Virus record (IMG/VR): IMGVR_UViG_3300045974_000041 | Span: 971 to 64,970 of that record | Source of the DNA: a virus | Taxonomy: Duplodnaviria > Caudoviricetes | DNA length: 64,000 nucleotides | Reading direction: 5' to 3' (one strand) | The notes under the pieces: model-generated | The model's database searches: none | The model's input: the letters and a program-made list of their open reading frames with translations, nothing else | Told to the model about the DNA's origin: nothing | Program-made: the position numbers and the translations under genes | Part shown: in pieces, positions 3,969 to 51,842 of the stretch | Layout: every line of letters begins with the position of its first letter | Position numbering within the stretch: position 1 is the stretch's first letter

Positions 3969-4007
3969 TTTTAAGGCGTTTTAAGGCGTTTTAAGGAGTT
4001 TTAAGCC
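3969..4007. repeat. tandem 10-mer TTTTAAGGCG (about 4 copies, degenerate)
   Basis: ttttaaggcg ttttaaggcg ttttaaggag ttttaagcc. Confidence 0.85.
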
Positions 4008-4088
4008 TTCCAAGCTACCCTTGCCTATCTACCACTGTTATAAAGCCCTGTAGGGTTGTTTCTGTGTCATCTAGCTATGTGTTTGTGC

Positions 4089-8106: not shown

Positions 8107-8577
8107 ATGACACAAGCTATTGATAGTATAGAAGATATTTATGACGAGAATGAGCCAGAAAGTAGTGGCGGGGAGATGAAACCTGCTACTGAATTGAGCT
8201 TTATTCGCACAGAACAACATGACTTAGCATTTCTATATAAAGGGTTGAAGGCTAACAGCCAAAAAGCTATTCGCAGATTGGTGTTAGGTATGGAAAGCGA
8301 GAATGAGAGGTTAGCAATTGATTGTGCTAAGACTCTACTGTCTTTCCAAATGGAAGTTAGTAAAGAAATCAATGCAGATATTATGCAACGAATGATACAG
8401 GAAGTAAAGAACAAAGGTGCTAATCGGGTAATGAAGGACATTATGGATTATGACTACGAGGATGAAAGCTTAACACCTGAAGAAGTTGAGCAGGTTGAAA
8501 AGAAGAAAGCTAAAAGAGTTAGGTCTAATGCTCCCATTATTAATTTCTCAAAAGTAGGAAAGGTGGAAGCATTATGA
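8107..8577 (+). CDS. putative terminase small subunit
   Basis: first gene of the packaging arm, helical, size fits; positional inference. Confidence 0.5.
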   Translation: MTQAIDSIEDIYDENEPESSGGEMKPATELSFIRTEQHDLAFLYKGLKANSQKAIRRLVLGMESENERLAIDCAKTLLSFQMEVSKEINADIMQRMIQEVKNKGANRVMKDIMDYDYEDESLTPEEVEQVEKKKAKRVRSNAPIINFSKVGKVEAL

Positions 8578-9098
8578 TGTATATAGTATGGTTTTTCAAG
8601 GCTTTAATAGACCTATCATTAGTGGTTATTAATCTTCCATTGGCACCATTGGTTGCTACCCTATCTGATAAAGATGGCAATCTTCCTAAGTGGCTAAAAT
8701 GGATGCAAACCAATGATAACACATTATTTGGCGATGATGGTTGGAAGAACTATCATTTTATAAATGGTAGCAATACATCTTGGTGGGCGCGTACTAATTG
8801 GATGTGGAGAAATCCTATGGGGAGTTTCGCATACGATGTTATGGGCGTTATTCCAGAAGGGTGGCTCACTGTAGTAGGTAATGACAAGGTTGGTAATAGA
8901 CCTCTGGTAGAAGGTAGTTGCTTTGCTAAGTGTGCTAACGCTTGGATGGTCTATTATGTTAAAAAGGTGAGTGATACAAAATGTATCCGAATCTACCTTG
9001 GATATAAACTTATGACCAATATCCATGAACATACAAATGAACGTGCAATGCTGGTATATTCCGTTAATCCTTTTATGGGTTGGAGTGATAAGGCTTGA
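8574..9098 (+). CDS. conserved phage hypothetical protein (N-terminal hydrophobic segment)
   Basis: LPKWLKW.QT.DN.L.GD..W and WRNP motifs. Confidence 0.7.
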   Translation: MMYIVWFFKALIDLSLVVINLPLAPLVATLSDKDGNLPKWLKWMQTNDNTLFGDDGWKNYHFINGSNTSWWARTNWMWRNPMGSFAYDVMGVIPEGWLTVVGNDKVGNRPLVEGSCFAKCANAWMVYYVKKVSDTKCIRIYLGYKLMTNIHEHTNERAMLVYSVNPFMGWSDKA

Positions 9099-9123
9099 CA
9101 AAGATAGTGGAATGCTTTAATAT
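9095..9123 (+). promoter_or_regulatory. promoter of the tRNA cluster
   Basis: TTGACA-17-TAATAT. Confidence 0.65.
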
Positions 9124-9135
9124 GGCTTTATTAGC

Positions 9136-9211
9136 GCTGTAGTAGCTCAGTTGGTAGAGCATCGCACTTGTAATGCGGTGGTCGAGGGTTCGAGTCCTTC
9201 CTACAGCACCA
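9136..9211 (+). tRNA. tRNA-Thr(TGT)
   Basis: canonical cloverleaf, loop CTTGTAA, TTCGA T-loop, encoded CCA. Confidence 0.95.
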
Positions 9212-9213
9212 TA

Positions 9214-9300
9214 GGGGAGGTAGACCGTTAAATAGGCGGGACAGACTGTAAATCTGTTGTTATTGCAACCCACTAGGAGCATTACCTAGACACCCCACCA
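9214..9300 (+). tRNA. tRNA-Tyr(GTA), atypical
   Basis: ACAGA-CTGTAAA-TCTGT arm, long variable arm, CCA; T-loop is AGCATTA and the acceptor stem has two mismatches. Confidence 0.75.
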
Positions 9301-9351
9301 GACTTTAACAAAGCCTTCAAAGCTTCCTGATAGCTCAAACCTGAAGGTTAT

Positions 9352-9437
9352 AGAGGGTAGCGCAGCGGCTGCAAAGGAGTTTTGAAAGCTCTGCCATCTA
9401 GGAATAGGTGATTGTTCGACTCAATTACTCTCTGCCA
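9352..9437 (+). tRNA. tRNA-Ser(TGA)
   Basis: AGAGGGT/ACTCTCT acceptor, loop TTTGAAA, long variable arm, G discriminator, CCA. Confidence 0.8.
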
Positions 9438-9439
9438 AT

Positions 9440-9515
9440 CTATCTGTAGGCTAGTAGGTAAGTCGTCTGGTTTGGAGCCAGAAGATCGCAGGTTCGACCC
9501 CTGCCGGATAGACCA
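9440..9515 (+). tRNA. tRNA-Pro(TGG)
   Basis: TCTGG-TTTGGAG-CCAGA, GGTTCGA, CCA. Confidence 0.93.
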
Positions 9516-9516
9516 T

Positions 9517-9594
9517 GTTCTCATCGTATAATGGTTAATACAGTCCCCCTTTCAAGGGATAAACAGAGGGTTCAATTCCCCCTTGAGAACTCCA
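9517..9594 (+). tRNA. tRNA-Glu(TTC), atypical anticodon arm
   Basis: GTTCTCA/TGAGAAC acceptor, CTTTCAA loop, GGTTCAA, CCA. Confidence 0.8.
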
Positions 9595-9654
9595 ATTTAA
9601 AAACCTCTGACGCTTATTAGCATTTTAATAGCGCACCACAGAGGTTACTATTAC

Positions 9655-9873
9655 AGCTCTTACACAATATTGTTTATTGGCGCTAAGGGTTATTTACACT
9701 AGCCTGCAAAGGCTATAACAGAGTACCTGAAAAGGGCTTGTGGAGAAGGCGAATCATTGCCAGCGTAAGCTGCCTATTGGATTCGAGAGTGATGGAACAG
9801 GCAGGGTGGTTGCCATTGCACAATTTAGATGCCCTGATAAGTGAGTGTAACAGCTTGCATATCAGGGCTTTTT
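9655..9873 (+). ncRNA. putative structured RNA of unknown class upstream of terL
   Basis: three GNRA-capped hairpins, end-to-end pairing, and a terminal GC hairpin plus U-tract; no ORF of 60 aa or more. Confidence 0.5.
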
Positions 9874-9897
9874 GTTATCTACCGAAAAGGAGAATAT

Positions 9898-12366
9898 ATG
9901 GGTAGACCTCGTAAGGAGCCAAGGCCGAGGTTCGAGCCTGCTTCTGAAACGCAGTTGAAATTTTTGCAATGTCAAAGTAAATTTATTATTTATGGTGGCG
10001 GTTGAAAGTCCAGTGCTCCACCTTAAACACTCTTCTAATTGCTGGAATAGCTTGTTAGCAAGCCAATCAGCAGCGAAGCCTTTAATTAGGAACGTTCAAC
10101 GACTAGAGCAGAAGCTCGTAGTGCTAAGTGGCACGAAACGGAGAGGGGCTTGGTAGCCTAAGATATAGTCTGATCTGCATAGTGATATGCAGCTGTGGAT
10201 AATTCCACGGGGGTAGATTAACGACCTACCTTGAACAAGCCACAAAGGCTGGCAGTGGCAAGTCCCACTTAGCACTAATGTCAGTGCTACAGTATATCAC
10301 AGACCCTAACTTTAGGGGAGTGTTTATTCGACAAACTAACACACAATTAACACAAGCTGGTGGTTTGTTTCCAGAGGCTTGTGATATGTACAAATACTTT
10401 GGTGCTAAAAGTAAGCAAATGCCTGTACCAACTATCACGTTCCCTTCAGGAGCACAAGTACAATTTAAAGTGTGTGCAGACCCTAGAGATACAAAGAACT
10501 TTGACGGTGGTCAATACAGTTTGGTAGTATTCGACGAAGCTCAATGGCATTCACAGGCTGAAATTAGCTATTTGGAATCTCGTATTCGTTCAAAAGCCAA
10601 AGCACCTCATAGAATGATTTGTACTTGCAACCCTTTGCGTGATAGTTTTTTGTATAAGTTTGTAGAATGGTATCTAGACCCTGAGACGGGGATTCCAAAA
10701 CCAGAACTTTCTGGTACTGAACGTTGGTATGCTCAGTATAACGGAGAATATGTATTTGGTGCAACAGCTGAAGAGTTGATAGAAAAATATGGAGATAGGG
10801 CAAAACCTCAGACATATACATTTATTGCTGCTACGATTTATGATAATCCTATATTAATTCGTAACGTACCAGAATATTTAACACGTCTTGAGAACTTGAA
10901 ACGTACTGAAAGGGAACGTCTACTATTAGGTAGTTGGCATGCTAGAGAAGAAGCCGCAGGCTATTTTAAACGTGATTGGGTAGAAGTGGTTGACCATCCA
11001 CCTATTAACCCTGTATCAGTTGTTCGCAGTTGGGACTTGGCTGCAACACTTGCCACAGAATCAAATCGTGACCCTGACTACACTGCAACAGTTAAAATGT
11101 CTCGTGACAAATATGGAACATATTATATTGAGCATGCAGATAGATTCCGAAAACTTACAGATGGCGTACTAAAGGAAATCGTAAGAGTTGCAAAGGAAGA
11201 TGGCATTGAAAACCTCACAGCCATTACAATCCCTCGTGACGGCGGGGCTGGTGGTAAAACTGCCAATTCTTTCTACACTAGAGTATTGGCAGAACAGGGT
11301 GTACCAGTTAGAAGTGTTGTTATGTCTGGTCACTCTGGTAAAGTACAACGCTTTTTACCATTCTCTTCATTATGTGAAAGTGGTAATGTTAAAGTGGTAA
11401 GAGGTGAATGGAATGAAGCTTTCTTTAATGAATTAGAGAGTTTCGACGGTGGCAGAAAAGGTCATGACGATTAAAATTGGTCGTCAATAAACCTATTGAA
11501 TTCAAGGAATCTCTTCGATAGAATTATCCTAGACAATCTTGAGCGAAGCCCTTATAATATAAGGGAACGTGCAACGACTAGAGCGAAAGCTCGTAGTGTC
11601 AAGTGACACGAAGCGGTAGGCTCTCTCAAAGCCTTGAGAGAGATGATATAGTCTGATCTGCATAGTGATATGCAGCATTTACTAAAAATAAAGGAATCTT
11701 TATGAAAGTCTCAGAAGTTTACACAAACAATGCAGGACAGCAGTTTGAAATTGTAGCCATAGTTGGTAAAAAAGCTTTGGTAAGATTTTTAGAAACATCT
11801 TCCACTAGGTTAGCTTATAGGGAAAATATCACTGCTGGAAAAGTTAAAGACCTCTATTCCAAATCCACTAATGGGGTTGGGTACTTAGGAGAATTTGAGA
11901 AAAATCAGTATTGGAAGCAGGCTATGCAGTTGTGGCGCAATATGATGAAGCGCTGCTACACCGATGACCCTAAAGGGTATAAATACAAAGGTACAACTGT
12001 AGATGCTCATTGGCATTGTTTTGCTAATTTCCATAGAGATTTACCAAAACTGAAAAACTTTTCAAACTGGCTAGCCTTCTACGAAGGTAAGTCAAAAGTT
12101 CAATATAACCTTGATAAAGATTTGCAAGTAGGTAGTAACAATATCTACAGTCCAAATACTTGCGGGTTTGAACTTGAGAGTGTAAACAAGGCCGCTGGCA
12201 AAGGCGGCAAGAGACTGGTAGATGGGTCTTGGGTAACGTCCAAGGCTTAACATAAATGTATGTCGATTGTTGCTCTGATGCTTTTAACACCCTATCAAAA
12301 CAACTACAAATCCCGACCTTTTCAATACCAACATTAGCACAAGCCTCTGTAATTCCACGCCTGTAG
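9898..12366 (+). CDS. terL: terminase large subunit, three exons: 9898-10002, 10248-11471, 12259-12366 (478 aa spliced)
   Basis: splicing restores Walker A YGGG|AGSGKS and nuclease motif HDD|YVD..SDAF; exon 2 has Walker B VFDEA, TCNP and SWDLA. Confidence 0.92.
10003..10247 (+). mobile_element. group I intron 1 (ORF-less, 245 nt) in terL Walker A
   Basis: exon ends in U, intron ends in G; P/Q/R/S = AATTGCTGGAA, AATCAGCAG, TTCAACGACTA, AAGATATAGTCT; P1 and P10 can form. Confidence 0.92.
11472..12258 (+). mobile_element. group I intron 2 (787 nt) with endonuclease ORF, in the terL nuclease motif
   Basis: P1 TGACGAT/GTCGTCA with U-G pair; GAATTCAAGGAA, AATCTTGAG, GCAACGACTA, ATGATATAGTCT; terminal G. 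Confidence 0.92.
11702..12250 (+). CDS. intron-encoded HNH-like homing endonuclease
   Basis: W.NM..RCY, W.CF.NF, LDKD...NIYSP.TC motifs; own AAGGA RBS. Confidence 0.8.
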   Translation: MKVSEVYTNNAGQQFEIVAIVGKKALVRFLETSSTRLAYRENITAGKVKDLYSKSTNGVGYLGEFEKNQYWKQAMQLWRNMMKRCYTDDPKGYKYKGTTVDAHWHCFANFHRDLPKLKNFSNWLAFYEGKSKVQYNLDKDLQVGSNNIYSPNTCGFELESVNKAAGKGGKRLVDGSWVTSKA

Positions 12367-23487: not shown

Positions 23488-26400
23488 ATGGCAGATAATG
23501 TTACAACGATTAAAGCTCAGGTAGTAGTTGAGGGCATGGGGTCTTACGATGACTTAGTTAAAAAGTCGTCTAATGCCACTACGTCTGTTGAAAAGCTTAT
23601 TGCTAAATTTCAACAACAAGCTGACCTTTTTAATAAGTCTACAGAAGAGATTAACAAGTATAAAGCCATTGTTGCCAAAGCTTCTTCAGATGAGGTTGCA
23701 ATGGCTGCTGCTATTGGTAGAACACTGGATGCTAAAAGGGCAGCTGTAGTTACAGAGAAGGAATTAGTAAAAGCTTACGACCAAGCTATAGCAATGGATG
23801 CAAAGCGTACATCTGCTATGGACGCACAGATTCAAAGAATGGGTAGATTGCAATCCCAAGCTGAAGCTATGAATAAAAAGTTTGATGAACAGAAGAACAG
23901 TGTAAATAATGCTAGTGGGGCTGGTAAACTCTTGGCAGGCGTCTATGAACGTATGTTGGCAGCAGCTGTTGCTTATATGGGTGTTGCTCTTGTAAAAGAA
24001 ACTGTAGCATTGTCTGATGCTTGGCAGAATATGCAAGCTCGTCTTACTATTGCTACAGGTAGCATGGAGAAAGCTAAAGCTGCCCAACAAGACCTTTATG
24101 ATTTGTCACAAAAACTGGCAATCCCTTTAGCAGAGACTGTGCAGTTATATACTCGCATGGCTCCTGCTATGGAGAAGATGGGTAGAAGCACTGCTGATAC
24201 TTTAAAAGTGACAGAAGCTATGGGCTTGGCACTGAAACTTTCTGGTGCTACATCTCAAGAAGCTTCTAGTGCTATGCTACAATTCTCACAATCCATGAAT
24301 AGTGGTGTGTTGAACGGTCAGGAGTTTAATGCTGTATCTGAGGCTGCACCACTAATTCTTGTAGCTCTTGAAAAGCAGCTTGGCAAAACTCGTGGCGAGC
24401 TTAAAAAGATGGGTGCCGATGGTAAGCTAACAATGGACTTGGTAACAAATGCACTGCTCGTGCAAGTGCCAGTTTGGGAAGAGTCTTTTAAGACTATGCC
24501 TGTTACAGCTGAAAATGCTTTCCAAAGATTGAAGAATTCTTATGCTAAGAATGTTGGTGAGAGTGACTTTGTTAGAGAGGCTACCGTAGCCTTGGCAAAA
24601 GTTTTCCTAATGCTAGCAGATAACTTGAATGTAGTAGGCGCAGCATTAACAGCTGGTGTAGTTGTTTTAGGTGCCTATGCAGTAGCTACGGGCGCGCTTA
24701 CTACAGCCTTTGCAGCAGCTTATGGGGCTATGGGTACGCTAGTTACCAGTGTTCTTGCATTGAATCCTCCCATGTTAGCCCTTGTCGCAGTTGCTACAGC
24801 TTTGGGTGCTGCATTTGTATATCTGGCAGTAAAAGAAACAGAATTGGAGAAGGCCGGTAAAAAGCTAGCAGATAACTATGTCGAACAAGCTGAAAAATTA
24901 GCTACACTGAATAAGTTAAAACAGCAGTATGGCGAATTAGCTGACGGTGCAAAAAGATCAGCAGCTGAAGAGATTGAAAAAAATAAAGTTGCCATTCAAG
25001 ATATTAAAGAGCGTATTGGTTTGGAGATTATCAAACAACGGTTAATGCTTAACACTAATGAAGAAATTTATAAAAGTGATAGGATTAAAGAATACAAAGC
25101 TGCTTTGGATATAGCTGCCAAAGCTCTCCAAGTGAATGAAGCTAATTTATATGGTGTAGAACATGCTTCAGCAGCTGCCAATGCAGAAATGAAAAGGTTT
25201 GCTGAACATGGTACTAAAGCAGCAGAGGTTCAAAAGTATTTAGACAAAGCTCCATCTAATATAAGACTAAAAGCAATAAAAGAGGAAAATGAGGCTTATG
25301 CACAAAGCCTGAAAGACGCTGGAGATAATTTGGAGCTACAGAAGAAGGCTCTTGCTGTGCATAAAGAGATGCTTGCCCATATAAATAAAGGTGAAATCGC
25401 TAAAGCCACTGCTGAAGAGACAGCTTATGCAGAATCTTTAAAAACACATGGAAAAGCAGTTGCTGACTTAATAGCCCATAATATTACTCTTAAAGAGCAG
25501 ATAGCTGTACTAAACTCTGGCGGTAATGTTAAAACTATCACATCTGAAACAGAGGCATATAACAAACTAAACCTAGAACTTGATTCTTATAATAAATCCC
25601 TTGCCATATTAAATAGACAAGGCGTTTCTGAAAAAGCTAAGAAAGTTATTAAAGGTCAAATTTCACTGGTTCAAGAGAAGTTGGTGCCCGCTAAAGAAGG
25701 TAGTGATTTATCTATAGAGAAAGCTAACACAGAGGCTAATAGAAGAGCTAATGATAAATTGGCAGCCTCTATTACAGAGGCCACTTTTGCTAGATATAAG
25801 GCTGTAGCTGCTGTTCAGGCAGAAGTTGAAATGTATGGTAAAGGTAGTGATGCTGTAAGAGCTAATACAATCCAATTAGAGGAAGCCTCGCTAGCAGAAG
25901 CTAAGAAGCTTGGTTTGGATGAAAATGCTATCAAGAAAATGGAAGAGCGTATTGACACACTGAAAGCTCTCCTACCTTGGCAACAAAAATTGGATGATTT
26001 GAAATATAATGAGTCTGTACACCAACAAGCCATGAATGCTTGGAAAGAACTAGGAGATACAATTGGTAGCAGTTTGTCCCAAGGTTTTGGTACAGCTGGT
26101 AAAGCTTTAGGTGATTTCGTATCGTCTTATGGTAGTATGCTTACTGAACAAGCTCAATTGAAAGATAAGTTTGATAAGGAAGTGGCAGCACATCCTAAAG
26201 ATCAAGCTAGACTTGAGAAAGAGTATCAAGATAAGTCTACACAAGGCCAATTGAAATCTTATGCTTCTATGGCTAAGTCTGCTCAAGGGTTCTTTAAAGA
26301 AGGCAGCACTGGTTGGAAAGTGATGGGTGCTGTTGAAAAAGGTATCCGTATTGCTAATATGGCTATGGCTGTTCAAGAAGCTGTTGTTAAGATGTCTTCT

Positions 26401-29400
26401 CTGAAAGCTGTGGACGGTGCTAACGAGAGTAGTATGTTGATGCGTATGGCAATGAATGTTAAAGAGCAATTCAGTAATGCTGTAACAGGTGTTTCTAAGG
26501 CTTTGGCATCTGCCCCGCCACCTTTCAACCTATCAATTGCAGCAGTGACAGCCGCAGCCTTTGCAGCGCTTGGTATTGGTGTTATTGGAGCTTTTTCAGG
26601 TGGCAGTGGTAGTGGTCAAGATGAAACTCAAACAGCAGCCTATCGTCAAAAAAATCAAGGCACTGGTACAGTATTTGGTGATGCTTCTGCTAAATCAGAA
26701 TCCATTGCCAAAAGCTTAGAGATAATGGTGAAAGCCTCTGATAGTGGCTTGGCTTATGATGCAGGCATGTTGCAATCTTTGAGAGCAATTGAAGCTGGTA
26801 TTAACAATCTGGCAGCTGTTGGTGCTAGGCAAGGTGTCACAGGCAGCTTCGGTGCAAGTGCTGGCTACAAATACCTCACTGATAGTGGCTTGACAGGCAG
26901 TGCTACAAGTCTTGGCTCTATTATGGGCGGTGGTGGTATTAATGCACAACAGTATGCTACAGAAGAGTTGAAGAGTAAAAACTGGCTAGGACAAATGAAA
27001 ACAACTGGTTATGTAGACCATTTGACAGCTTTGTCTAGCGACATGCAAAGCCAATTCTCTAACATTGTTTTAGGTATGGCAGATAGCATTACAAAAGCTG
27101 GTATGAATTTTGGTGTGTCGGCAGATGTGATGAAAGAGAAACTTTCTAAATTCGTTGTAGATATTGGTCACATTAGTTTGATGGGCTTATCAGCAGATGA
27201 AATTCAAAAAGAATTGAACGCTGTGTTTGGTAAGATGGGCGATGAAATGGCAGCTTTCGTAGCAACAGGTGCTGATGGTAAAAACGCTCTAAGCGAATTC
27301 CAAAAGGTTGGTGAGGGTAGTTTTGAAACCCTTATCCGAATCTCGAATGAATTTACTACCACTAATGCAATTCTTGATGCAATGGGTACTACTTCTGAAA
27401 AAGCTTTCGGTGTTACAGGCATTGCAAGCTTAAAGGCTCGTGAACAGCTTATTGATTTTGCAGGCGGTTTGGACAATCTTGTTAAAGGTATTAGTAGCTA
27501 TAACAAGAATTTCTACACGGCAGCAGAACAAACTAAAATGGGTTTAGATGCTTTGCAAAAATCATTCACTGAGATGAATATGGGTACACTCCCAACAACT
27601 AGAGAAGCATATCGTAAAATGATAGAAAATTTAGTTAACGGTGGTGGGCTGGCAACAGAGGCTGGTAGAAAGCAATATGCACAACTCATCCTGCTAAGTG
27701 ATAAGTTTGCTGAGCTAGTTCCACAAACTGAAGCTGCTACAACTGCTATTAGTAATTACGTACAAGCTCAGAAGGATATGATTAAGCAATATTCAGCAGC
27801 TGAGACTGTTGATGAGGCTTATGCTAAACTGAAAGGCACGTTCTCAGGCTTGGTAGACCAGACAACATTGTTGTCAATGTCCTCTAAAGACTTGAAGGCT
27901 GCCTTGATTGGTATTATTGCTGGTGCAGACCCTACCACAGCTTCTGGTAAAGCCTTATTAGATAGTTTAAGTGCTTTGTCACCAGAGATTGATATTCTAC
28001 TAAAAGCTAGTGATGATTATGCAGCAGCCCTTGTAAAAGAAGCTGAAGCTAAGAAGAGCGCTACAGATAGTATGAATAGCTTTATCAATAAGTATTCTGC
28101 TAGTATGACAGGTAAGCAAGCTAGAGATAGTTTAGTTGCAAAAGGGGCTAATCCTGCTATAGTAGATGAAGTTATTGGCAGAGGTAGTAGCGGTATTAAG
28201 CAATATTTGGTAGATTGGGCTAAGACAGCTGACCCTGCAACTGAGGCTGGTAGAGCGTTAATCAAGGCATTGCAAGACTTAACACCTGAGTTTGATGCAA
28301 TTATCAAGGGTGCTGACGATGCTGCGGCTGCTATTAAAGCTTCGCAAGATGCTCAACAGTCTTTCCATGATAAGTATATGCCTGAAACTGCTGCTGAAGC
28401 TCGGGCTAAGATTATCGCATCTAGTAACAATCCTGACATTACTGCTATAGTTGATAAGGCTATTGCTGGTGGTAGTGGTGCTATTAAAGACATTATCACA
28501 CAACAAATGGCAGCTACTGATGCTACTACAGAGCAAGGTAGGGCATGGATTAAGGCAATGCAAGACCTGTCACCTGAGTTTGATATACTCATCGCATCTG
28601 CTGAAAAAGCTTCGGCAGCATTGGTAAGTAGTATTCAAAATCTTATGTCTGCTAAGAGTGCTATCACAGACCAGCGCAGCGCCATTACAGATGCCAAGTT
28701 TAGTGTCGGTGGTAAGTATGGTGTGGCAGGATATGGTAGTGGTGATTATGTTAGTATGCTTAGTGGCAGAACAGCGTCTGCTAGGGCTGCTTTCAAGGCT
28801 GCTAGTGTGTCTGATAAGGCTGGTGCAGCTGGTAAGCTTGTAGGTGCCTTGCAAGCCCAATTTGAGGCTCAAATGGCACATACACAAGAGCTTCGTAATC
28901 AACAGCAACAAGCTTTTGAAGCTAATAGAGCTAATGCACAAGCAGCAGCTGAAGCTCAGACAGCCTACTTGCAAAATGCTCAACAAGGTGCTGAAGCTCT
29001 CAACTCAATTTATATTGGATTGAAAGAAGCAGCTGAACAGCTCCTATTGTCAGATTTGTCTCCACGCACTATTAGCCAACGTGTTGATATTGCTAAAGAA
29101 ACATTTGACAGTTTGGCTAGAAGAGCAGGCGGCGGAGATCAGGATGCTTTGAGTAAGCTTGGTCAAGCTGGTAATGAATACTTGACAGAATTCCTTACTA
29201 AGTTCCCTAGAGCATCAGCGGAATACGGTAAAGAGTTTGATAGAGTACAAGGTTTGATGGAGCAGTTTGGTGGCAAGGCTCAAGACCCAGCAGCACTTAC
29301 AGCACAGTATTCCCAGCAAATTGCACAGGCTACATTTGATAGCGCTGGTTTTGATAAGCAATGGGCTGATATACAAGCTAAATGGGCTGAAGAGGATAAA

Positions 29401-29754
29401 GCTAGTGCGCAAGCCTTAATAGATCAGATGACAGCAGTTGATGGAGACTTAGGTGCTGCACTTCCAACAATAGATGAAAACATTGCATCTATGGCTACAA
29501 GTTTGGGTGCTATGACTACTGACCTTTCAACTCTTCCAGAAGATATTGCAGCTATTATTCTTGAAGAAAGAAAAGCAGCAGCAGATGCAGCAGCCAAGGT
29601 TGCAGCAGAACATCAAGCAGCTCTGGATAAGATTGCTCAACTACAAGAGGCTCAATTACAAGCTCTGTGGAGACAGCATGAAATCACTGAAGATTTACCA
29701 ATGTACATAGCAGAAGCTTCAGCAAGTGCAACAAGCAATATAACATTACGTTAA
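23488..29754 (+). CDS. tape measure protein
   Basis: 2088 aa, Ala-rich; QFSQ....GVLNGQEFNAV.E domain. Confidence 0.93.
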   Translation: MADNVTTIKAQVVVEGMGSYDDLVKKSSNATTSVEKLIAKFQQQADLFNKSTEEINKYKAIVAKASSDEVAMAAAIGRTLDAKRAAVVTEKELVKAYDQAIAMDAKRTSAMDAQIQRMGRLQSQAEAMNKKFDEQKNSVNNASGAGKLLAGVYERMLAAAVAYMGVALVKETVALSDAWQNMQARLTIATGSMEKAKAAQQDLYDLSQKLAIPLAETVQLYTRMAPAMEKMGRSTADTLKVTEAMGLALKLSGATSQEASSAMLQFSQSMNSGVLNGQEFNAVSEAAPLILVALEKQLGKTRGELKKMGADGKLTMDLVTNALLVQVPVWEESFKTMPVTAENAFQRLKNSYAKNVGESDFVREATVALAKVFLMLADNLNVVGAALTAGVVVLGAYAVATGALTTAFAAAYGAMGTLVTSVLALNPPMLALVAVATALGAAFVYLAVKETELEKAGKKLADNYVEQAEKLATLNKLKQQYGELADGAKRSAAEEIEKNKVAIQDIKERIGLEIIKQRLMLNTNEEIYKSDRIKEYKAALDIAAKALQVNEANLYGVEHASAAANAEMKRFAEHGTKAAEVQKYLDKAPSNIRLKAIKEENEAYAQSLKDAGDNLELQKKALAVHKEMLAHINKGEIAKATAEETAYAESLKTHGKAVADLIAHNITLKEQIAVLNSGGNVKTITSETEAYNKLNLELDSYNKSLAILNRQGVSEKAKKVIKGQISLVQEKLVPAKEGSDLSIEKANTEANRRANDKLAASITEATFARYKAVAAVQAEVEMYGKGSDAVRANTIQLEEASLAEAKKLGLDENAIKKMEERIDTLKALLPWQQKLDDLKYNESVHQQAMNAWKELGDTIGSSLSQGFGTAGKALGDFVSSYGSMLTEQAQLKDKFDKEVAAHPKDQARLEKEYQDKSTQGQLKSYASMAKSAQGFFKEGSTGWKVMGAVEKGIRIANMAMAVQEAVVKMSSLKAVDGANESSMLMRMAMNVKEQFSNAVTGVSKALASAPPPFNLSIAAVTAAAFAALGIGVIGAFSGGSGSGQDETQTAAYRQKNQGTGTVFGDASAKSESIAKSLEIMVKASDSGLAYDAGMLQSLRAIEAGINNLAAVGARQGVTGSFGASAGYKYLTDSGLTGSATSLGSIMGGGGINAQQYATEELKSKNWLGQMKTTGYVDHLTALSSDMQSQFSNIVLGMADSITKAGMNFGVSADVMKEKLSKFVVDIGHISLMGLSADEIQKELNAVFGKMGDEMAAFVATGADGKNALSEFQKVGEGSFETLIRISNEFTTTNAILDAMGTTSEKAFGVTGIASLKAREQLIDFAGGLDNLVKGISSYNKNFYTAAEQTKMGLDALQKSFTEMNMGTLPTTREAYRKMIENLVNGGGLATEAGRKQYAQLILLSDKFAELVPQTEAATTAISNYVQAQKDMIKQYSAAETVDEAYAKLKGTFSGLVDQTTLLSMSSKDLKAALIGIIAGADPTTASGKALLDSLSALSPEIDILLKASDDYAAALVKEAEAKKSATDSMNSFINKYSASMTGKQARDSLVAKGANPAIVDEVIGRGSSGIKQYLVDWAKTADPATEAGRALIKALQDLTPEFDAIIKGADDAAAAIKASQDAQQSFHDKYMPETAAEARAKIIASSNNPDITAIVDKAIAGGSGAIKDIITQQMAATDATTEQGRAWIKAMQDLSPEFDILIASAEKASAALVSSIQNLMSAKSAITDQRSAITDAKFSVGGKYGVAGYGSGDYVSMLSGRTASARAAFKAASVSDKAGAAGKLVGALQAQFEAQMAHTQELRNQQQQAFEANRANAQAAAEAQTAYLQNAQQGAEALNSIYIGLKEAAEQLLLSDLSPRTISQRVDIAKETFDSLARRAGGGDQDALSKLGQAGNEYLTEFLTKFPRASAEYGKEFDRVQGLMEQFGGKAQDPAALTAQYSQQIAQATFDSAGFDKQWADIQAKWAEEDKASAQALIDQMTAVDGDLGAALPTIDENIASMATSLGAMTTDLSTLPEDIAAIILEERKAAADAAAKVAAEHQAALDKIAQLQEAQLQALWRQHEITEDLPMYIAEASASATSNITLR

Positions 29755-29764
29755 AAGGAAAAAT

Positions 29765-31228
29765 ATGGCAATCTCTGACAGTCAATATCTAGCATGGTTA
29801 CAAAAGGATGGTGTTAGACGAGTGGTATTAGTGGAAGTGCAAGTATACAGTGGTAGCTCTATCACTACAAGATATTTGTCAAATTCTGCTTATGCTTCTT
29901 TTCCATCTGATACACCAGCCAATCAACCATACGACGATTTGCTGTTAGAGATTCCACGTTTCTCTAACAGTATGTCTGAAGCCTTTGGCGGGGCTAGTAA
30001 GCCTGCCTTTGGCGATGTTGTAATAGACAATAGCAGTGGTGCAAGAGATAGCTGGCTCAATGATAGTTGGGCTGGTTATCCTATTAACATCTATTTAGGT
30101 GATGTTAGCTGGGCTAAGAGTGATTTTAGACTCATCCTCTCAGGCATTACAGCCGATATTCAGGCTAGAGATAATGCTAGCTTAATTGTTAAAATGAGAG
30201 ATAAGCAAGACCTTCTCAATAAACCTGTCAACTCTAATCTTTATACGACAGGTAGTGCTGTAGGATTGCCAAAGCCTTTGTGCTATGGGCAATGTTACCA
30301 AGTGGAGCCTATACTAATTGACAGTGCTACACACAAATATCAAATACACGATGGAGCTATTAATGGCATTACCACAGTGTATGAAAATGGTTACACCATT
30401 CCATTTACAGCTGACTTAGCAAATGGATGTTTTACATTACCAGCTAACCCAGCTGGACACATTACAGCTGACTGTACTGGTGCAAAACCTTCTGGCACCT
30501 ATATTACCAAAGTTGCTGACATTGCTTTGGATTTGATTACAAGAGCAGGATTGTCAGGCTCTGATATTAGTTCTACCAGTTTGGCTGCAATGAATACGCT
30601 ATGCCCTCAAACAGTGGGATTGTTTATTAAAGATCGTACTAATTTATTGCCAGCCTTAGATGAATTGGTTGCTAGTGTTCAAGGTTATTATGGTTTTGGT
30701 AGAGATGGTAAGTTTCAAATGGGTAGATTATCTACACCAGCTGGCAGTCCTACACTATATTTGATAGCTGATGACATTGAACAATATGGTGTTACAGTTA
30801 AAACTGTTAGCCCTCCTATTAAAACTTATAGAATGGGATATAAACAGTATTACACCATTTTATCAGACGGTGTAGCAGGAGCTGTAACAGAGACTGTTAG
30901 GGCTGATTATTTGAATGAATACAGAGCTGTCACAGCAACTAACACTGTCACTGGATGGCCTTTAGCAGCAGAACCAGAGCTAGTTGGTGGCAATTTGGCG
31001 ATACAATCAGAAGCACAAACAGAGTGTAATAGACGTGCAGCATTATTTAGTGTGCCTAGGAAAGTGTTACAAGTGAAAGCTTTCACAGCCCCACAAAGAA
31101 TAGAACTAGGGCAAGAGATAAATATAACATACCCTCGCTATGGATTGAATAACGGTGTAAATGGTATTGTTATAGGTGTTTCAGAATCTCCAACAAGTAG
31201 TAGAGTAGACTTAGAGGTGTGGTTATAG
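29765..31228 (+). CDS. tail tip/hub protein
   Basis: follows TMP; KPLCYG motif. Confidence 0.6.
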   Translation: MAISDSQYLAWLQKDGVRRVVLVEVQVYSGSSITTRYLSNSAYASFPSDTPANQPYDDLLLEIPRFSNSMSEAFGGASKPAFGDVVIDNSSGARDSWLNDSWAGYPINIYLGDVSWAKSDFRLILSGITADIQARDNASLIVKMRDKQDLLNKPVNSNLYTTGSAVGLPKPLCYGQCYQVEPILIDSATHKYQIHDGAINGITTVYENGYTIPFTADLANGCFTLPANPAGHITADCTGAKPSGTYITKVADIALDLITRAGLSGSDISSTSLAAMNTLCPQTVGLFIKDRTNLLPALDELVASVQGYYGFGRDGKFQMGRLSTPAGSPTLYLIADDIEQYGVTVKTVSPPIKTYRMGYKQYYTILSDGVAGAVTETVRADYLNEYRAVTATNTVTGWPLAAEPELVGGNLAIQSEAQTECNRRAALFSVPRKVLQVKAFTAPQRIELGQEINITYPRYGLNNGVNGIVIGVSESPTSSRVDLEVWL

Positions 31229-31229
31229 T

Positions 31230-32087
31230 ATGGCAAATCCAAATGTAAGGTTTATTATTGACAACTACGCAGATGATGCTACACTTAGCGCTAGTGCTGG
31301 GGTAGTAGCTGCTATGCCTGTCACCAATCTTCAAGACCCTTCTCGTGGTAGATTCATGCGCACCACAAGCATTGCCAGCCAAACAATTAATGGTAATTTC
31401 ACATTAGCAGCTTTGGTAAGTAGTGTTGTATTGTATAGTCATACATTAACATCTTCTGCCACATGGCAAATCAAGTTTTACGATGGATTGAATCAAACTG
31501 GCACACTTTTATTTGATAGTGGAGCGCAGCCTGCCTATTCTGGCAAATCCTTTGGAGAACTTATCTACGGTGTTGACGTATGGGGAGCTTCAGTATTTAC
31601 AGGTTGGGGTAAAGCTTTTAGTCAATTATGGATGAATAGTGGTGTTGTTGCACTAAGTTTTCAAATCATCATTCAAGACCCTTCCAACACTGTAGGTTAT
31701 TGGGATGCTGGTAGACTCATTATTGGCAACTACTTAGAGCCACTAGAGAATATTGACTACGGTGCTATTGAGTTTGGTTGGCAAGAAGATAGCAAACAAA
31801 CTCGTACAGGTGGCGGTACATTAAGAACAGACGTTGCAGCAGCTGGTAGCTTTAGACAACTTTCATTCTCCCTTGACTATTTAAATGAAGGTGAGCGTGC
31901 TAAGTTTGCAGAATTTCAACGTAAAGGTGGTTTGCGAAAAGACTTCTTTGTATCTGTATTCGCAACACAAGGTGGTGCTTTGGAACGTGACCATGCAATG
32001 CTAGGTAAGATTACAACTCTTTCAGCTATGGGCAGACCTAGCTACATTCAAGCAGGCAGTATTAAATTAAATATAGAGGAAGCGTAA
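31230..32087 (+). CDS. tail tip protein (distal-tail-like)
   Basis: position; AGRLIIG...N..YG...RT.GG motif. Confidence 0.55.
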   Translation: MANPNVRFIIDNYADDATLSASAGVVAAMPVTNLQDPSRGRFMRTTSIASQTINGNFTLAALVSSVVLYSHTLTSSATWQIKFYDGLNQTGTLLFDSGAQPAYSGKSFGELIYGVDVWGASVFTGWGKAFSQLWMNSGVVALSFQIIIQDPSNTVGYWDAGRLIIGNYLEPLENIDYGAIEFGWQEDSKQTRTGGGTLRTDVAAAGSFRQLSFSLDYLNEGERAKFAEFQRKGGLRKDFFVSVFATQGGALERDHAMLGKITTLSAMGRPSYIQAGSIKLNIEEA

Positions 32088-32088
32088 T

Positions 32089-32559
32089 ATGGCAGCAGCA
32101 TCGCAAACTTCCGTAGTTATTGCCAATGGAGCTAATGACTACGTTGAAAAAATTAACAGATTTGTAACAGATATTGCTAGTTTGCTTGGTGAGATTGTAG
32201 CAGCGCGTGGTGGTAGTGCTGAAATTGCTACAAGGCTTGCAACAATGCAAACACAACTCAACCAAGCAATATCATCTACAGCAGGCTTAACAGCTGATGT
32301 GGCAGCAAACGGATATAAGATAACAGGGCTTGGTAATGCTGTCAACCCTTCTGATGCTGTTAATCTCACTACAGCTCAGGCTATCCTTTCAGGTGGTGGT
32401 ACTCCCAGCAGTATTGCCATCACTGCATTGAATAAAGGTACTGCTGCTAATCAATCTTTTATTACAATTAATGACAGTGGAGCTATTGTAGGCTCTTTAA
32501 ACACTAATGATATTACAAGAGCTAAAAGAAAAGCTAACATTGCTTTCGCTAGCATTTAA
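32089..32559 (+). CDS. tail fibre proximal protein
   Basis: KITGLG......DAVN fibre motif. Confidence 0.6.
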   Translation: MAAASQTSVVIANGANDYVEKINRFVTDIASLLGEIVAARGGSAEIATRLATMQTQLNQAISSTAGLTADVAANGYKITGLGNAVNPSDAVNLTTAQAILSGGGTPSSIAITALNKGTAANQSFITINDSGAIVGSLNTNDITRAKRKANIAFASI

Positions 32560-32576
32560 TTTAAAGGAAAATAATA

Positions 32577-33296
32577 ATGGCTTTTGATGTTTTAGTAAAT
32601 GGCAATGTAAACGATACATGCATTGCATCATTCGTAACAGCTTCTGGCACCAATCTTAAAATCTTAGTAGATGCTTCTCCTGCTAGAATGTTGGCAGCTA
32701 TCTCTGGTGAAACGCCAGCTGTTAGTAGACCATTACAGGGTGGTGTTAGAATTACAGACGCTACAGCTAGTAGCACAAATGCCTCTGCCAATACTCTGCT
32801 AGTTTATGATGGCATGCAAATCCTCACAGCCACAGCTATATCGGGTGCTGGCTCTGTCACGGTAACTAACGCTACCACTATCACTTTTGGTACTTCTGGT
32901 GCGCCTTATACGGCTGGTATCAGGGTTGGTGATGTGTTGACAGTTTTTAGTGCTAGCGCAGGCGCTGTACCAGAAGCTAATGAAGGTTTGCTAATCCCTG
33001 TTACGGCTGTGACAGCTACAACTATTACAACTTCTGCAACACTTTCTGGTACAGCTGCTTTAGCAATTGGTAGCAGGCTTGTTAAGGTGGCTCTTGATTA
33101 TGCTACAAGCGTTCCTGCTAATGCTGGTAACTCCGCCACTATTGCTAACGTAGCTTTGCTTGCTAACGGTAATGATAGTAGCGCTGATAAGATTGGTATT
33201 GATATGGGTGCTAATAGCGTTCTATTAGCTGGTATGTCAGCTGCTATTTCTGGTACAGGTGCTGTAGTAGCTAGAGCAAAAGCTAGAGGATATTAA
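32577..33296 (+). CDS. tail-associated structural protein
   Basis: Ala/Thr/Gly-rich, within the tail module. Confidence 0.55.
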   Translation: MAFDVLVNGNVNDTCIASFVTASGTNLKILVDASPARMLAAISGETPAVSRPLQGGVRITDATASSTNASANTLLVYDGMQILTATAISGAGSVTVTNATTITFGTSGAPYTAGIRVGDVLTVFSASAGAVPEANEGLLIPVTAVTATTITTSATLSGTAALAIGSRLVKVALDYATSVPANAGNSATIANVALLANGNDSSADKIGIDMGANSVLLAGMSAAISGTGAVVARAKARGY

Positions 33297-33298
33297 GA

Positions 33299-34414
33299 AT
33301 GCCAAACCCTATTCAAGAATTGGGTTTACCTTCCAGACAAGTTAGCGGTAGCAGTAGCCCTACATATTATACACAAACCCCTGTTATTACAACATCACAG
33401 AATATTACAGTACCCCAAGGATGTAAAAAGATTGAAGCACTGCTTGTAGGTGGTGGTGGTAGTGGTGGTGCTGGCATCCTCAACTCCCCTGTACGTGGCG
33501 GTGGTGGCGGATTCGGTGGAGCCTATGTGATGGAACTGCCAATGTGCGTAGGTCAGCTGCAAATCACTATAGGGGCTGGTGGTACTGCTCCTGCTGCTGG
33601 CACTGCTGCTGATGGCACAAGAGGTGGTACTACCAAGATTACAAATAACGGTGTCGTACTCGCAGCTGTTGGTGGCGGCGGGGCAGGGGCGGGCATTAAT
33701 AATTCTTACAGTGTTAGTGATTTACCATACATCTACAGTGGTGTTTATGGCGGAGCAGCAGGAGGTGCAGCAGGGTCTTCGTCAGTTAATAATCAAGGGA
33801 ACTTTGGCAGTGTCCCTCCAAACCTGAACAGGGTAATAGACAGTGCCTATGCTCAATATCCGTCTGTCAGGTCTACAGTGGGTGCGGATTACTCCACAGG
33901 AGCTTTTGGGGCTGTTGCTAACCCGTCATTAGGTACTGCAAACTCTTCTGCTGTTCCGACACCACAGGGTACAGGTTTACACGCATCAGGTAGCAGCAGT
34001 GGTTCAAGCGGCACAGGCACAGGCCAACAACTAAGGGGTATAACCGTACCTCTGGCTGGGGCAGGTACAAGTGGCTGCTACCAATCAGCATCTGCCCACG
34101 CAGTATGTGGAGGTGGCGGTGGCGCTGGCGCTGGCAATTCTAATGGTGGCAACGGTGGCGATCTCACTGGCATCTCTTTATGGGGCTACGGCAACACCAC
34201 AGGCGGTGTTAGTAATGGCTACGGTGGCGGTGGTGGCGCAGGATTGTTAGCTAATGGTACAGCTGGTAGTAGTGCGGGTGGCACATGCTTTGGTGGTAAC
34301 GGTGGTAACGGTGGTGGGGGCGGTGGGGGCGGTACAGACGGTCTGGGTGCTGGCTCTGGGTGGAAAGGTGGCAACGGTGGTAATGGTTTTGCTGTCTTAC
34401 GATTCTATTTTTAA
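33299..34414 (+). CDS. glycine-rich adhesin / receptor-binding protein A
   Basis: VGGGGSGG...GGGGGFGG, many polyglycine runs, ends GGNGFAVLRFYF. Confidence 0.7.
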   Translation: MPNPIQELGLPSRQVSGSSSPTYYTQTPVITTSQNITVPQGCKKIEALLVGGGGSGGAGILNSPVRGGGGGFGGAYVMELPMCVGQLQITIGAGGTAPAAGTAADGTRGGTTKITNNGVVLAAVGGGGAGAGINNSYSVSDLPYIYSGVYGGAAGGAAGSSSVNNQGNFGSVPPNLNRVIDSAYAQYPSVRSTVGADYSTGAFGAVANPSLGTANSSAVPTPQGTGLHASGSSSGSSGTGTGQQLRGITVPLAGAGTSGCYQSASAHAVCGGGGGAGAGNSNGGNGGDLTGISLWGYGNTTGGVSNGYGGGGGAGLLANGTAGSSAGGTCFGGNGGNGGGGGGGGTDGLGAGSGWKGGNGGNGFAVLRFYF

Positions 34415-34423
34415 AGGAATATT

Positions 34424-34918
34424 ATGAAATACGCATTAGTTAAAAATGGAGTGGTAGAGAACATTATTCTAGCTGATAGTGGATTTGCAGCAACACTGGA
34501 AGGCTATGATGCAGTGTTAGATTGTAATGATAGTCAACAGTGTCACCCTAGTATTGCTATTGGTTGGGTATATGATAAAACCAATGGTAGTACATCTCCG
34601 CCTGTCTATGCACCTATCAATCAACTTACATGGGACAATGCCCCTGCTGAATATTGGTGGCTAGATATTGGTACTTTCTTTGACAGATTTGGTAGTAAGA
34701 AGCTGGCAATTCTATCGTCTACTGATGTTTTAGTACAAGCTATTATTATGGATGTGTCAGTAAGAAAATACGTAGACCTTAAAAGAGCAGACGTTGCACA
34801 AGCATTGACATTGATTGCTAATAAAGGGTTATTGACAATTCAAGAGGCTGCTATAATCACTACAACACACACAACAGATTATGAACGCCATATTAAAAAT
34901 CTGCCACAACCAGTATAG
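34424..34918 (+). CDS. adhesin partner / fibre assembly protein A
   Basis: MKYALVKNGVVENII..IGWVYD N-terminus; C-terminal domain paralogous to 36223-36567. Confidence 0.65.
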   Translation: MKYALVKNGVVENIILADSGFAATLEGYDAVLDCNDSQQCHPSIAIGWVYDKTNGSTSPPVYAPINQLTWDNAPAEYWWLDIGTFFDRFGSKKLAILSSTDVLVQAIIMDVSVRKYVDLKRADVAQALTLIANKGLLTIQEAAIITTTHTTDYERHIKNLPQPV

Positions 34919-34926
34919 GAGGATAA

Positions 34927-36222: not shown

Positions 36223-36567
36223 ATGAACGAGCCTCTAACCTTTATACCGCCTGCTCCGACACCTATAAAATGGACAGACACCAACCTAGACCCTACCTAT
36301 TGGCATATTGACGTAGGAACTTTCTATGATAGGCTGGGTAGTGCTAAGCTACCAATCCTAGCTTCCACTGATACAACAGTGCAAGCTATTGTTAAAGACA
36401 CTCAAATCAGATTGTTTATTGACTTGAAACGTCAAGACGTAGCAGACAGTTTGACATACGTATCATCAAAAGTGCCAGCCCTCACTGCTGCTATGATTGT
36501 AACAATTATTACCACTCCGACCACAGAGTATGAACGTCATATTAAAGGAATGGTACAGCCATTATAG
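36223..36567 (+). CDS. adhesin partner / fibre assembly protein B
   Basis: clear paralog of the C-terminal domain of 34424-34918. Confidence 0.65.
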   Translation: MNEPLTFIPPAPTPIKWTDTNLDPTYWHIDVGTFYDRLGSAKLPILASTDTTVQAIVKDTQIRLFIDLKRQDVADSLTYVSSKVPALTAAMIVTIITTPTTEYERHIKGMVQPL

Positions 36568-51684: not shown

Positions 51685-51759
51685 GAAAAGAATGTGTAGG
51701 ATTTGAACCTACATTGCCACCACTCAAAGGTGGTATCTTGCCAGTTAGATGAACATTCT
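51685..51759 (-). tRNA. degenerate tRNA, Gln(TTG)/Ser(TGA) ambiguous, no CCA
   Basis: full cloverleaf (AGAATGT acceptor, GTAGG-TTCAAAT-CCTAC); loop TTTGAGT; 3' end TTTCA. Confidence 0.65.
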
Positions 51760-51763
51760 TATT

Positions 51764-51842
51764 TGGTGAAGGCGGCAGGACTCGAACCTGCATTGATCCA
51801 CTTACTCGGCTACGGGTTAGAAGCCCGTTGAGATACGCCCCC
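51764..51842 (-). ncRNA. D-arm-less tRNA-like RNA with Arg(TCT) anticodon arm
   Basis: GGGGGCG/CGCCTTC-ACCA, ACGGG-CTTCTAA-CCCGT, GCAGG-TTCGAGT-CCTGC; only 7 nt where the D arm should be. Confidence 0.75.

Follow-up and report, generated by a model that had tools for sequence, protein, structure and literature searches.

The window analysed here is a stretch of 64,000 nucleotides (nt) that takes in most of the 64,970-bp record of an uncultured virus (IMG/VR record IMGVR_UViG_3300045974_000041, positions 971 to 64,970). Its genes lie on the minus strand up to about 7.8 kb and on the plus strand from about 8.1 kb. Between a cluster of five tRNA genes and the terminase gene terL lies a non-coding gap of 304 bases (9595-9898), for which a sequence-only reading had proposed one structured RNA of about 220 nt (9655-9873). 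This observation is real but mis-bounded, since the conserved unit covers only about 90 nt (9734-9827) and the terminator behind it. Judged by sequence comparison, the 3' part at 9734-9827 is a divergent copy of a conserved, previously uncatalogued RNA motif of about 73 nt with two hairpins. The carriers of this motif are a clade of uncultured phages, whose complete records, where examined, are about 80-90 kb long. The features that lead up to terL are as follows.

8107-8577, plus strand: small open reading frame (ORF) without a Pfam or PHROG family
8574-9098, plus strand: DUF7338 ORF
9095-9123, plus strand: sigma-70-like promoter TTGACA-17-TAATAT on the 5' side of the tRNA cluster, 10 of 12 consensus positions, a consensus match only
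9136-9594, plus strand: five phage tRNA genes (Thr, Tyr, Ser, Pro, Glu) called by ARAGORN, three of the five also at the Rfam tRNA gathering score
9602-9646, plus strand: lineage-specific hairpin AACCUCUG...CAGAGGUU directly 3' of tRNA-Glu, present in the minimum free energy (MFE) fold and the centroid of 9595-9880
9655-9733, plus strand: 5' part of the proposed segment, lineage-specific and outside the conserved family, with no alignment to the nearest relative (L042, see below) and outside the covariance-model match
9831-9873, plus strand: intrinsic terminator, a 38-nt hairpin GCCCUGAUA...UAUCAGGGC followed by UUUUU (-21.4 kcal/mol), with the arms GCCCTGAT(A) at 9831-9839 and (T)ATCAGGGC at 9860-9868 and the T-run at 9869-9873
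about 9886-9892, plus strand: terL ribosome-binding site AAAGGAG, followed by the ATG at 9899

With a sigma-70-like promoter and five tRNA genes on its 5' side, the segment is plausibly co-transcribed with the tRNAs, as had been proposed, and the transcript that carries it likely starts at the predicted promoter at 9095-9123. The ORF at 8107-8577 offers no candidate partner protein, since it belongs to no Pfam or PHROG family. The terminator was missed by a simple terminator scanner because this allowed loops of at most 8 nt.

The TerL protein of the window is at most about 44% identical to TerL of cultured phages (Pseudomonas PAK_P-type and Erwinia phages), and blastn of 9595-9900 against 50,697 phage records gave zero matches. 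TerL-guided retrieval yielded 18 IMG/VR loci with at most 59% identity, none of them alignable to the element, and 10 metagenome loci; a wider TerL-profile scan yielded 46 loci. When nhmmer and blastn were run against the first 18 loci, only chance words of 12-27 nt were returned. The nearest relative is the metagenome locus L042, whose TerL is 61% identical to that of the window. L042 is laid out like the window. It has divergent minus-strand genes, of which one looks PhoH-like on inspection by eye, then a small ORF, a promoter and a tRNA-Thr gene, which is followed by about 180 nt of non-coding sequence, a terminator and an interrupted terL. Another long hairpin occupies the position of the window's hairpin at 9602-9646. 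The two loci have in common an exact 13-mer and an exact 8-mer at a fixed spacing, TTGTGGAGAAGGC-N6-TTGCCAGC, together with a similar terminator, and the 13-mer is identical to the 5' strand region of the window copy described below.

The word GGAGARGG was found upstream of terL in L002, L009 and L003 and then in L107, L108, L113, L117, L119 and L144. Each time it was followed by a hairpin of differing sequence and then by a second hairpin with a conserved loop. A covariance model (R1) was built from a MAFFT alignment of ten stretches of about 73 nt; R2 is a later model. At E < 0.01, R1 recognised 34 of the 68 sources searched, and these hits all fell on the plus strand in the loci oriented by terL; L042 scored 66.6 bits. 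Searches of the whole records of four relatives turned up a single strong match apiece (E 1e-15 to 1e-16). In the record of the window, the top-scoring match lay at 9734-9827 (18.5 bits, E 0.0039) and the next had an E of 0.70; all other matches in these whole-record searches had an E of at least 0.26. A location-blind pattern scan of IMG/VR returned 35 loci, 21 of them on new contigs, and added nine model-verified copies. In seven of these nine, the first large gene to follow on that strand is terL, at a distance of 75 nt to 1.7 kb. All searches together gave 35 distinct copies. These copies are a family: a two-helix RNA on the terL strand, present once, placed before terL and associated with terminators. 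From this structure and distribution we infer the function that is proposed below.

Scans with single pieces of the window returned no further members. Exact-word scans of IMG/VR with two window hairpins gave 13 and 9 loci, and a scan with TTGTGGAGAAGGC-N5-12-TGCC gave 53 loci, none of which extended past the pattern. A pattern scan of 185,579 prokaryote genomes gave eight loci with zero members among them (best 14.1 bits). The earlier view of the segment as lying outside known families was borne out by Rfam 15, with zero matches at gathering score and zero in 9595-9898 at E <=10; this covers phi29 pRNA, tmRNA, RNase P, ribozymes and riboswitches so far as the library includes them. At E <=1, nothing was matched at the motif of six strong relatives, apart from mir-145, which scored below its cut-off (28.8 bits against 50) with a match overlapping L113 1951-2053. 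A description of the motif was not found in the full-text literature, a search that did not extend to supplementary motif lists. Two candidate identities were rejected: a tRNA-like identity of the 73-nt core was ruled out by inspection, ARAGORN and Rfam, and a sigma-54 promoter at GGC-N8-TGC was ruled out by eye, its spacing being one base short of the consensus.

Three further loci deserve mention in their own right. L018 carries a copy at 4001-4074 on the minus strand (26.7 bits, R2), opposite to the orientation of the locus. This copy lies about 0.8 kb upstream of a second terL-like N-terminus on its own strand, so that the contig has terL-like sequence on both strands. L004 and L006 gave no model hit. 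In the same gap, L004 shows a short resemblance, TAGTTGTGGGAACC, at 1560-1590, and L006 shows GATAGCCCTG and GCGTAAGC followed by a terminator at 2568-2727; such resemblances may be what is left of the motif or its terminator.

From 5' to 3', the motif consists of a variable hairpin H0, the strand GUGGAGAGGG, the 6-bp hairpin H1, CUAAAG, the hairpin H2 and the tail CACCGAAUU. In most relatives, H0 ends 2-6 nt short of (U)AGUGGAG. Its sequence is unrelated between copies and it often carries a tetraloop; its loops read GAAA, UAAG, UUAG, UUCG or GAGA. H1 follows directly 3' of GGAGAG and has 6 bp (GGNNNN/NNNNCU) and a 6-nt loop. The loop of H2 measures 11-17 nt (GGCAUGGUWGNGUGGCG, with GGUWGNGUGG as its core), and the tail reads CAC(C/A)(G/A)AAUU. 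The consensus of R2 is gGauUaGUGGAGAGGG-cggc-aauuUG-gccg-CUAaAg-aucacg-GGCAaGGUAGgGUGGCG-Ccgug-uCACcAAUUu.

Both helices are strongly supported by covariation. RNAalifold on the plain MAFFT alignment of ten sequences returned H1 and H2, and 9 of the 11 pairs showed compensatory changes. In the model-fitted alignment of 33 distinct rows, 92.8% of the cells were paired, compared with 62.2% after shuffling (reached in 0 of 500 shuffles) and 32-42% when the partner strand was slid. An alignment made with MAFFT only (30 distinct sequences) gave 79.1% paired cells against 58.3% shuffled (0/500) and 37-46% slid; it left out the window, L112, L116, L126 and L167, because each had an insertion or deletion or was nearly identical to another row. 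G-U pairs are frequent, and one pair of H1 is G-U in 24 of 31 cells. Since such pairs would be A-C mismatches on the other strand, selection acts on the plus-strand RNA.

These data bear on the idea that the conserved sequence is a signal at the DNA level (a pac or cos site, a terminase-binding site or a phage promoter) or a spacer of no function. Packaging sites are often near terminase genes, the 5' 80 nt of the segment are not conserved, and the thermodynamic signal of the segment is weak, all of which would suit such an explanation. The compensatory changes and the G-U pairs point to selection on the RNA, and the sequence is not repeated in the genome. For the conserved core, the covariation largely refutes this explanation, which we regard as highly improbable.

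The copy in the window has the 5' strand, the H2 loop motif and the tail, all in the order of the family:

9726-9735, plus strand: weak 3-bp hairpin CCU-GAAA-AGG at the position of H0, ending 2 nt before UUGUGGAG and 6 nt before GGAG
9738-9749, plus strand: purine-rich 5' strand UUGUGGAGAAGG (family GUGGAGAGGG), conserved across the family and found once in the window
9750-9785, plus strand: expanded H1 with the base CGAAUC/GAUUCG, enclosing CAGC-GUAA-GCUG (centroid fold); a 33-nt insertion in the model
9790-9818, plus strand: H2, (U)GAUGG/CCAUU(G), 5-6 bp (9790-9795 with 9813-9818) and a 17-nt loop (model alignment)
9800-9809, plus strand: H2 loop motif GGCAGGGUGG (family GGUWGNGUGG), within the H2 loop
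9819-9826, plus strand: conserved tail CACAAUUU (family CACCGAAUU) (model alignments)

With default filters, R1 gave this region (9734-9827) a score of 18.5 bits and R2 one of 22.4 bits (E 0.0063 in 277 kb). The copy is single, lies on the terL strand and ends 72 nt before the ATG of terL. Its helix CGAAUC/GAUUCG presumably represents an expanded H1, an assignment made from position and not from covariation, and the copy would fold like the rest of the family.

All hairpins and helices that had been listed for the 220-nt segment were located at, or within 1 base of, the following positions.

9655-9665 with 9845-9855, plus strand: long-range helix AGCT-C-TTACAC / GTGTAA-C-AGCT
9678-9681 with 9812-9815, plus strand: TGGC / GCCA
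9689-9693 with 9715-9719, plus strand: GTTAT / ATAAC
9700-9715, plus strand: TAGCCT-GCAA-AGGCTA, lineage-specific
9726-9735, plus strand: CCT-GAAA-AGG, the hairpin at the H0 position
9750-9755 with 9780-9785, plus strand: CGAATC / GATTCG
9761-9772, plus strand: CAGC-GTAA-GCTG
9770-9775 with 9799-9804, plus strand: CTGCCT / AGGCAG

The segment does hold a conserved structured RNA on the terL strand. Comparative support came for CGAATC/GATTCG, by its place at H1, and for the terminator, and it extended to the second hairpin at 9790-9818, which had not been listed. The long-range helix, the GCAA hairpin and TGGC/GCCA had no counterpart in L042 or in the family. GNRA caps are not a feature of the family, as the GCAA and GUAA loops occur only in the window; CCU-GAAA-AGG does sit where the relatives have H0, with a loop that is not conserved. 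The segment, described earlier as free of ORFs, has no conserved ORF: readings as small ORFs (MPA*, 34 aa and 55 aa) were ruled out as not conserved in L042, which lacks an equivalent of the 34-aa and 55-aa frames.

The thermodynamic signal is only weakly above chance. The plus strand of 9655-9873 folded with z = -2.02 (7 of 200 shuffles as good), its minus strand with z = -0.96 (34/200) and the plus strand of 9595-9880 with z = -2.66 (2/200). The only feature common to all predicted folds was the terminator hairpin at 9831-9868 with its UUUUU. The helix 9655-9665/9845-9855, offered earlier as a switch, is not conserved, and all predicted folds have the full terminator in its place; once formed, the terminator hairpin excludes this helix.

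A hairpin followed by a U-run was found within 200 nt of the motif in 26 of the 35 distinct copies. In 19 copies the distance from the motif to the start of the terminator is 1-10 nt, and in seven it is 85-123 nt; the stems have several unrelated sequences across the family. L042 and L107 carry a hairpin homologous to that of the window, AGCCCUG...CAGGG(C)U, with a U-run. In the window, 25 nt separate the end of the U-run from the terL ATG. With gaps counted per locus (which includes L170 and L172, whose cores duplicate L134 and L123), terL follows directly in 17 copies at 11-190 nt from the motif, the window with its 72 nt among them. In 18 copies an inserted ORF, by eye of the HNH or GIY-YIG homing endonuclease type, comes first, and terL lies 0.8-1.7 kb away. 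For the divergent copies L160 and L182, the distance to the downstream terL is 2.3 and 4.4 kb. Protein genes precede many copies, and the motifs of the window, L042 and L107 stand directly 3' of tRNA genes. The order of motif, terminator and terL is kept through the insertions of tRNA and endonuclease genes.

The leader does not belong to one type of terL. In L152 and L108, the 386 nt before terL are 94% identical and the TerL proteins about 40% identical, so that the leader behaves as a module serving different terL genes. The two loci (L108:1981-2366 and L152:4949-4564) show a sharp mosaic boundary at the start of terL, with the small ORF, the motif and the terminator on its upstream side; leader and terminator together look like a joint where modules recombine.

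Some copies carry additional structured sequence. L111, L117, L126, L127 and L167 have an extra module of about 110 nt with multiple hairpins (e.g. GAGCG...CGCUC, CGC-GUAA-GCG and GACUAG...CUAGUC) between motif and terminator, and L144 has a different insert of about 100 nt there. The inserted ORFs of L121, L134, L138, L123, L114 and L142 have in common a conserved, apparently structured leader directly after the terminator, uuuGUGGCGAACGGACU(A/G)...GAUAGCCAC...UUAUUAAC...GUAGGAG, and another insert family (L002, L050 and L133) has a different common leader.

The terL gene of the window consists of three exons with two group I introns, to which RF00028 matches at 9947-10192 and 11416-11675 (Rfam):

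9899-10002, plus strand: terL exon 1, ending in ...IIYGGG and followed by a group I intron
10248-11471 and about 12262-12366, plus strand: terL exons 2 and 3

The exon borders lie at about 10002/10248 and 11471/12262, and the second intron contains an HNH endonuclease ORF (11702-12250). A third group I intron is located at 56168-56390 on the minus strand of the window. Group I introns were also seen near or in terL of L005, L006, L017 and L113, and terL of L042 is interrupted at the same place as that of the window, so that intron invasion of terL appears to be recurrent in the clade. A second tRNA locus lies on the minus strand at 51687-51842, where ARAGORN calls one tRNA-Ser (51687-51760) and Rfam finds, besides this, a weaker tRNA at 51767-51842 (38.8 bits) that ARAGORN does not call.

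We propose that the motif and the terminator together act as a cis-acting leader of terL that sets the read-through into terL, and we give this proposal about an even chance of being right. A transcript from the upstream genes, in the window from the 9095 promoter through the five tRNAs, would carry the motif in the direction of terL. The motif and the terminator at 9831-9873 would form the leader, and the folded RNA would decide in cis how many polymerases pass the terminator into terL. This would most likely happen through the elongating polymerase or a bound factor, by a put-like or nut-like antitermination; a mutually exclusive antiterminator hairpin would be the less likely route. In the window, L042, L107, L108 and similar phages, the terminator and terL stand too close together to accommodate a promoter, and terL must therefore be transcribed there by read-through from upstream. 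The variable spacing between motif and terminator, the use of unrelated terminators and the failure to detect a competing pairing favour an action on the elongation complex. A cis-acting controller of read-through is also the simplest explanation for a conserved, strand-specific, single-copy fold just before a terminator or the ribosome site of terL. Both the action in cis and the modulation of termination are predicted from sequence.

The same arrangement could equally belong to a stable RNA, as its 3' domain; this is the main rival. Motif and terminator would then be the end of a stand-alone trans-acting non-coding RNA released from the tRNA or upstream transcript, and the adjacency to terL would be synteny. 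The terminator behind the motif in 26 of 35 copies fits this, as does the position of the motif in the window, L042 and L107, directly 3' of the tRNAs and ending in the terminator of the operon. The motif's unpaired, conserved purine tracts might serve as a seed or bind a protein. The search for antiterminator pairing came up empty, and the leader moves with the upstream DNA and not with terL. The copies that have no terminator speak for a leader instead. Five of these nine lie within the terL 5' untranslated region (UTR), 11-28 nt from the start codon: in L113, L131 and L136 the tails abut the ribosome site and ATG of terL (gap 11-12 nt), and in L009 and L003 there are 28 nt from the motif to the start of terL. 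Moreover, a dedicated promoter before the motif was not seen in L108, where no promoter-like site was found in 1400-2500, no other part of the window is complementary to the conserved strand, and the order of motif, terminator and terL outlasts the insertion of tRNA and endonuclease genes. A trans-acting RNA appears possible, though rather unlikely.

A cis-acting leader could also work as a riboswitch-type or protein-titrated attenuator, in which a small molecule or a phage protein on the purine-rich core would switch between terminator and antiterminator or control access to the ribosome site. The earlier suggestion of an attenuator gating terminase expression comes near to our proposal, with its intrinsic terminator directly 5' of terL. 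A single copy in the 5' UTR, a conserved core with variable helices, and alternative expression platforms (a terminator in 26/35 copies, a ribosome site abutting the tail in three) all resemble such a device. The pairing that it calls for was not found. When the duplex between the motif and the 5' arm of the terminator was compared with shuffles, the complementarity was at chance (mean z = -0.17, n = 26), and no antiterminator pairing was supported. A closing helix P1 between the 5' flank and the tail had no covariation support (64.6% paired against 67.4% shuffled, with 476 of 500 shuffles as high; permutation p = 0.13). An upstream CUCC partner for GGAGAGGG was likewise unsupported (mean z = -0.12, 4 of 35 below -1.64). 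Seven copies have 85-123 nt of extra structured RNA between motif and terminator, and one leader serves TerL proteins that are about 40% identical, which argues against autoregulation by TerL. Attenuation by a ligand or a titrated protein is unlikely on these grounds.

The place of the window copy at the junction of untranslated tRNA RNA and mRNA would also suit an element of RNA processing or stability, such as an entry or protection site for a nuclease, or, more boldly, a new small self-cleaving ribozyme. Small ribozymes have helices of free sequence around invariant nucleotides, and the motif likewise has two to three such helices around invariant junction and loop nucleotides. No Rfam ribozyme family was matched, many copies stand behind protein genes instead of tRNAs, and a terminator right behind a processing site has no obvious use. 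Such an element is very unlikely. The earlier thought of a packaging-associated RNA found nothing that points to it. The pRNA family of phi29 is in Rfam, and no Rfam family was matched.

Several observations weigh against the proposed read-through leader. On the side of the window, H1 is a 36-nt branched hairpin without the closing GG/CU pairs of the family. The window is the weakest accepted member, the others scoring 24-77 bits, and with filters off on the 304-nt gap R2 gave 9.2 bits (E 0.0075). When the core (9724-9830) was folded alone, it was no better than shuffled sequence (z = -0.10, 83/200 shuffles) and its MFE structure lacked H1 and H2. Since the fold on its own is not that of the family, it is homology, synteny and the link provided by L042 that place the window copy in the family; this copy may be either a variant form or one in decay. 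Among the relatives, nine of 35 copies have no terminator within 200 nt and the terminator call in L182 is doubtful. In at least L115 and L116, a sigma-70-like promoter lies behind the terminator, brought in together with the endonuclease gene inserted before terL, so that terL need not depend on read-through there. Further promoter-like sites within the structural module of the window (e.g. 12429 and 20812) mean that the terminator does not gate the entire late region. The loci derived by TerL cover only 2.5-4 kb on each side of terL and bias the positional statistics, which the whole-record and pattern searches offset only in part. Lastly, the sequence is listed in only one DNA sequencing run, maybe that of the source sample, and in no RNA run.

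How late and packaging genes are controlled is understood in a handful of model phages, but not at all in most environmental ones. Dozens of uncultured phages have this conserved RNA as a single copy ahead of terL, and it offers a testable handle on late-gene control, as it stays in place through insertions of tRNA and endonuclease genes and even through the replacement of terL. The covariance model can be used to annotate a recurring 'empty' gap in phage genomes. To our knowledge, put is the only class of factor-independent antiterminator RNAs. If the motif acted in this way, it would be the second class after put and a compact, portable part for synthetic biology; if it were bound by a ligand or a protein, the state of the host would be linked to DNA packaging. 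We tentatively consider a bolder version, with a probability well short of even: the motif would be either a second, evolutionarily independent RNA class that by itself makes bacterial RNA polymerase resistant to terminators, or a phage riboswitch with a metabolite-sensing purine-rich core. In the first case, large, apparently lytic environmental phages would carry transcription from the tRNA or early region across the terminator into the packaging gene. In the second, the sensing of a host metabolite would time packaging.

Among known systems, the late leader of lambda is a short untranslated leader with a strong terminator between a host-type promoter and the packaging and head genes (PMC9378689). 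The motif resembles this arrangement (pR'-6S RNA-tR' with Q) in being part of a leader that ends in a terminator before a packaging gene. Lambda Q acts through DNA and sigma pausing and not through a conserved RNA fold, whereas the motif is such a fold.

A lambda-type nut site consists of boxA (CGCUCUUA-like), about 8-9 nt, and a boxB hairpin with a GNRA-like pentaloop. The word GCTCTTACACA at 9656-9666 of the window is identical in 11 of 11 positions to boxA and spacer of lambda nutR, and its boxA alignment score was reached by six of 300 shuffles. Unlike in nut, no boxB-type pentaloop hairpin follows the boxA-like word, and the nearest GNRA hairpin is 34 nt off. R1 found nothing at the nutL and nutR loci of lambda. 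Only 2 of the 35 distinct members carry GCTCTTA on the upstream side of the motif, and we therefore treat GCTCTTACACA as chance and rule out boxA/nut as a feature of the family.

The 3' external transcribed spacer of the Escherichia coli glyW-cysT-leuZ operon is an untranslated RNA between the last tRNA and the terminator, the very place that the motif has in the window, L042 and L107. Most members of the family differ from it in following protein-coding genes, and some in having no terminator. With attenuating riboswitches the motif has in common a conserved, structured 5' UTR core that is followed by a terminator or a ribosome site; unlike these, it has no closing P1, no conserved antiterminator and no match to an Rfam riboswitch.

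A close parallel is put of phage HK022, a cis-acting RNA that binds the zinc-binding domain of the beta' subunit of RNA polymerase and suppresses termination. When R1 was run with filters off on HK022 24000-36500, which we take to hold putL and putR, the best match had 4.3 bits (E 2.8), so that no homology is indicated. The hairpins of the motif are short (5-7 bp) and stand among long conserved purine-rich single strands, in contrast to put, and its phages are not lambdoid. The put RNAs are about 70 nt long and fold into two stem-loops; they lie 3' of a promoter and 5' of terminators, work independently of proteins, and act on distant terminators without a hairpin switch (PMC9378689). The motif is likewise about 73 nt long, has two covarying hairpins and stands 1-123 nt before terminators, with no antiterminator pairing found. 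This last point favours a put-like over a riboswitch-like action, and the best reading is that the motif would work more like put than like a riboswitch.

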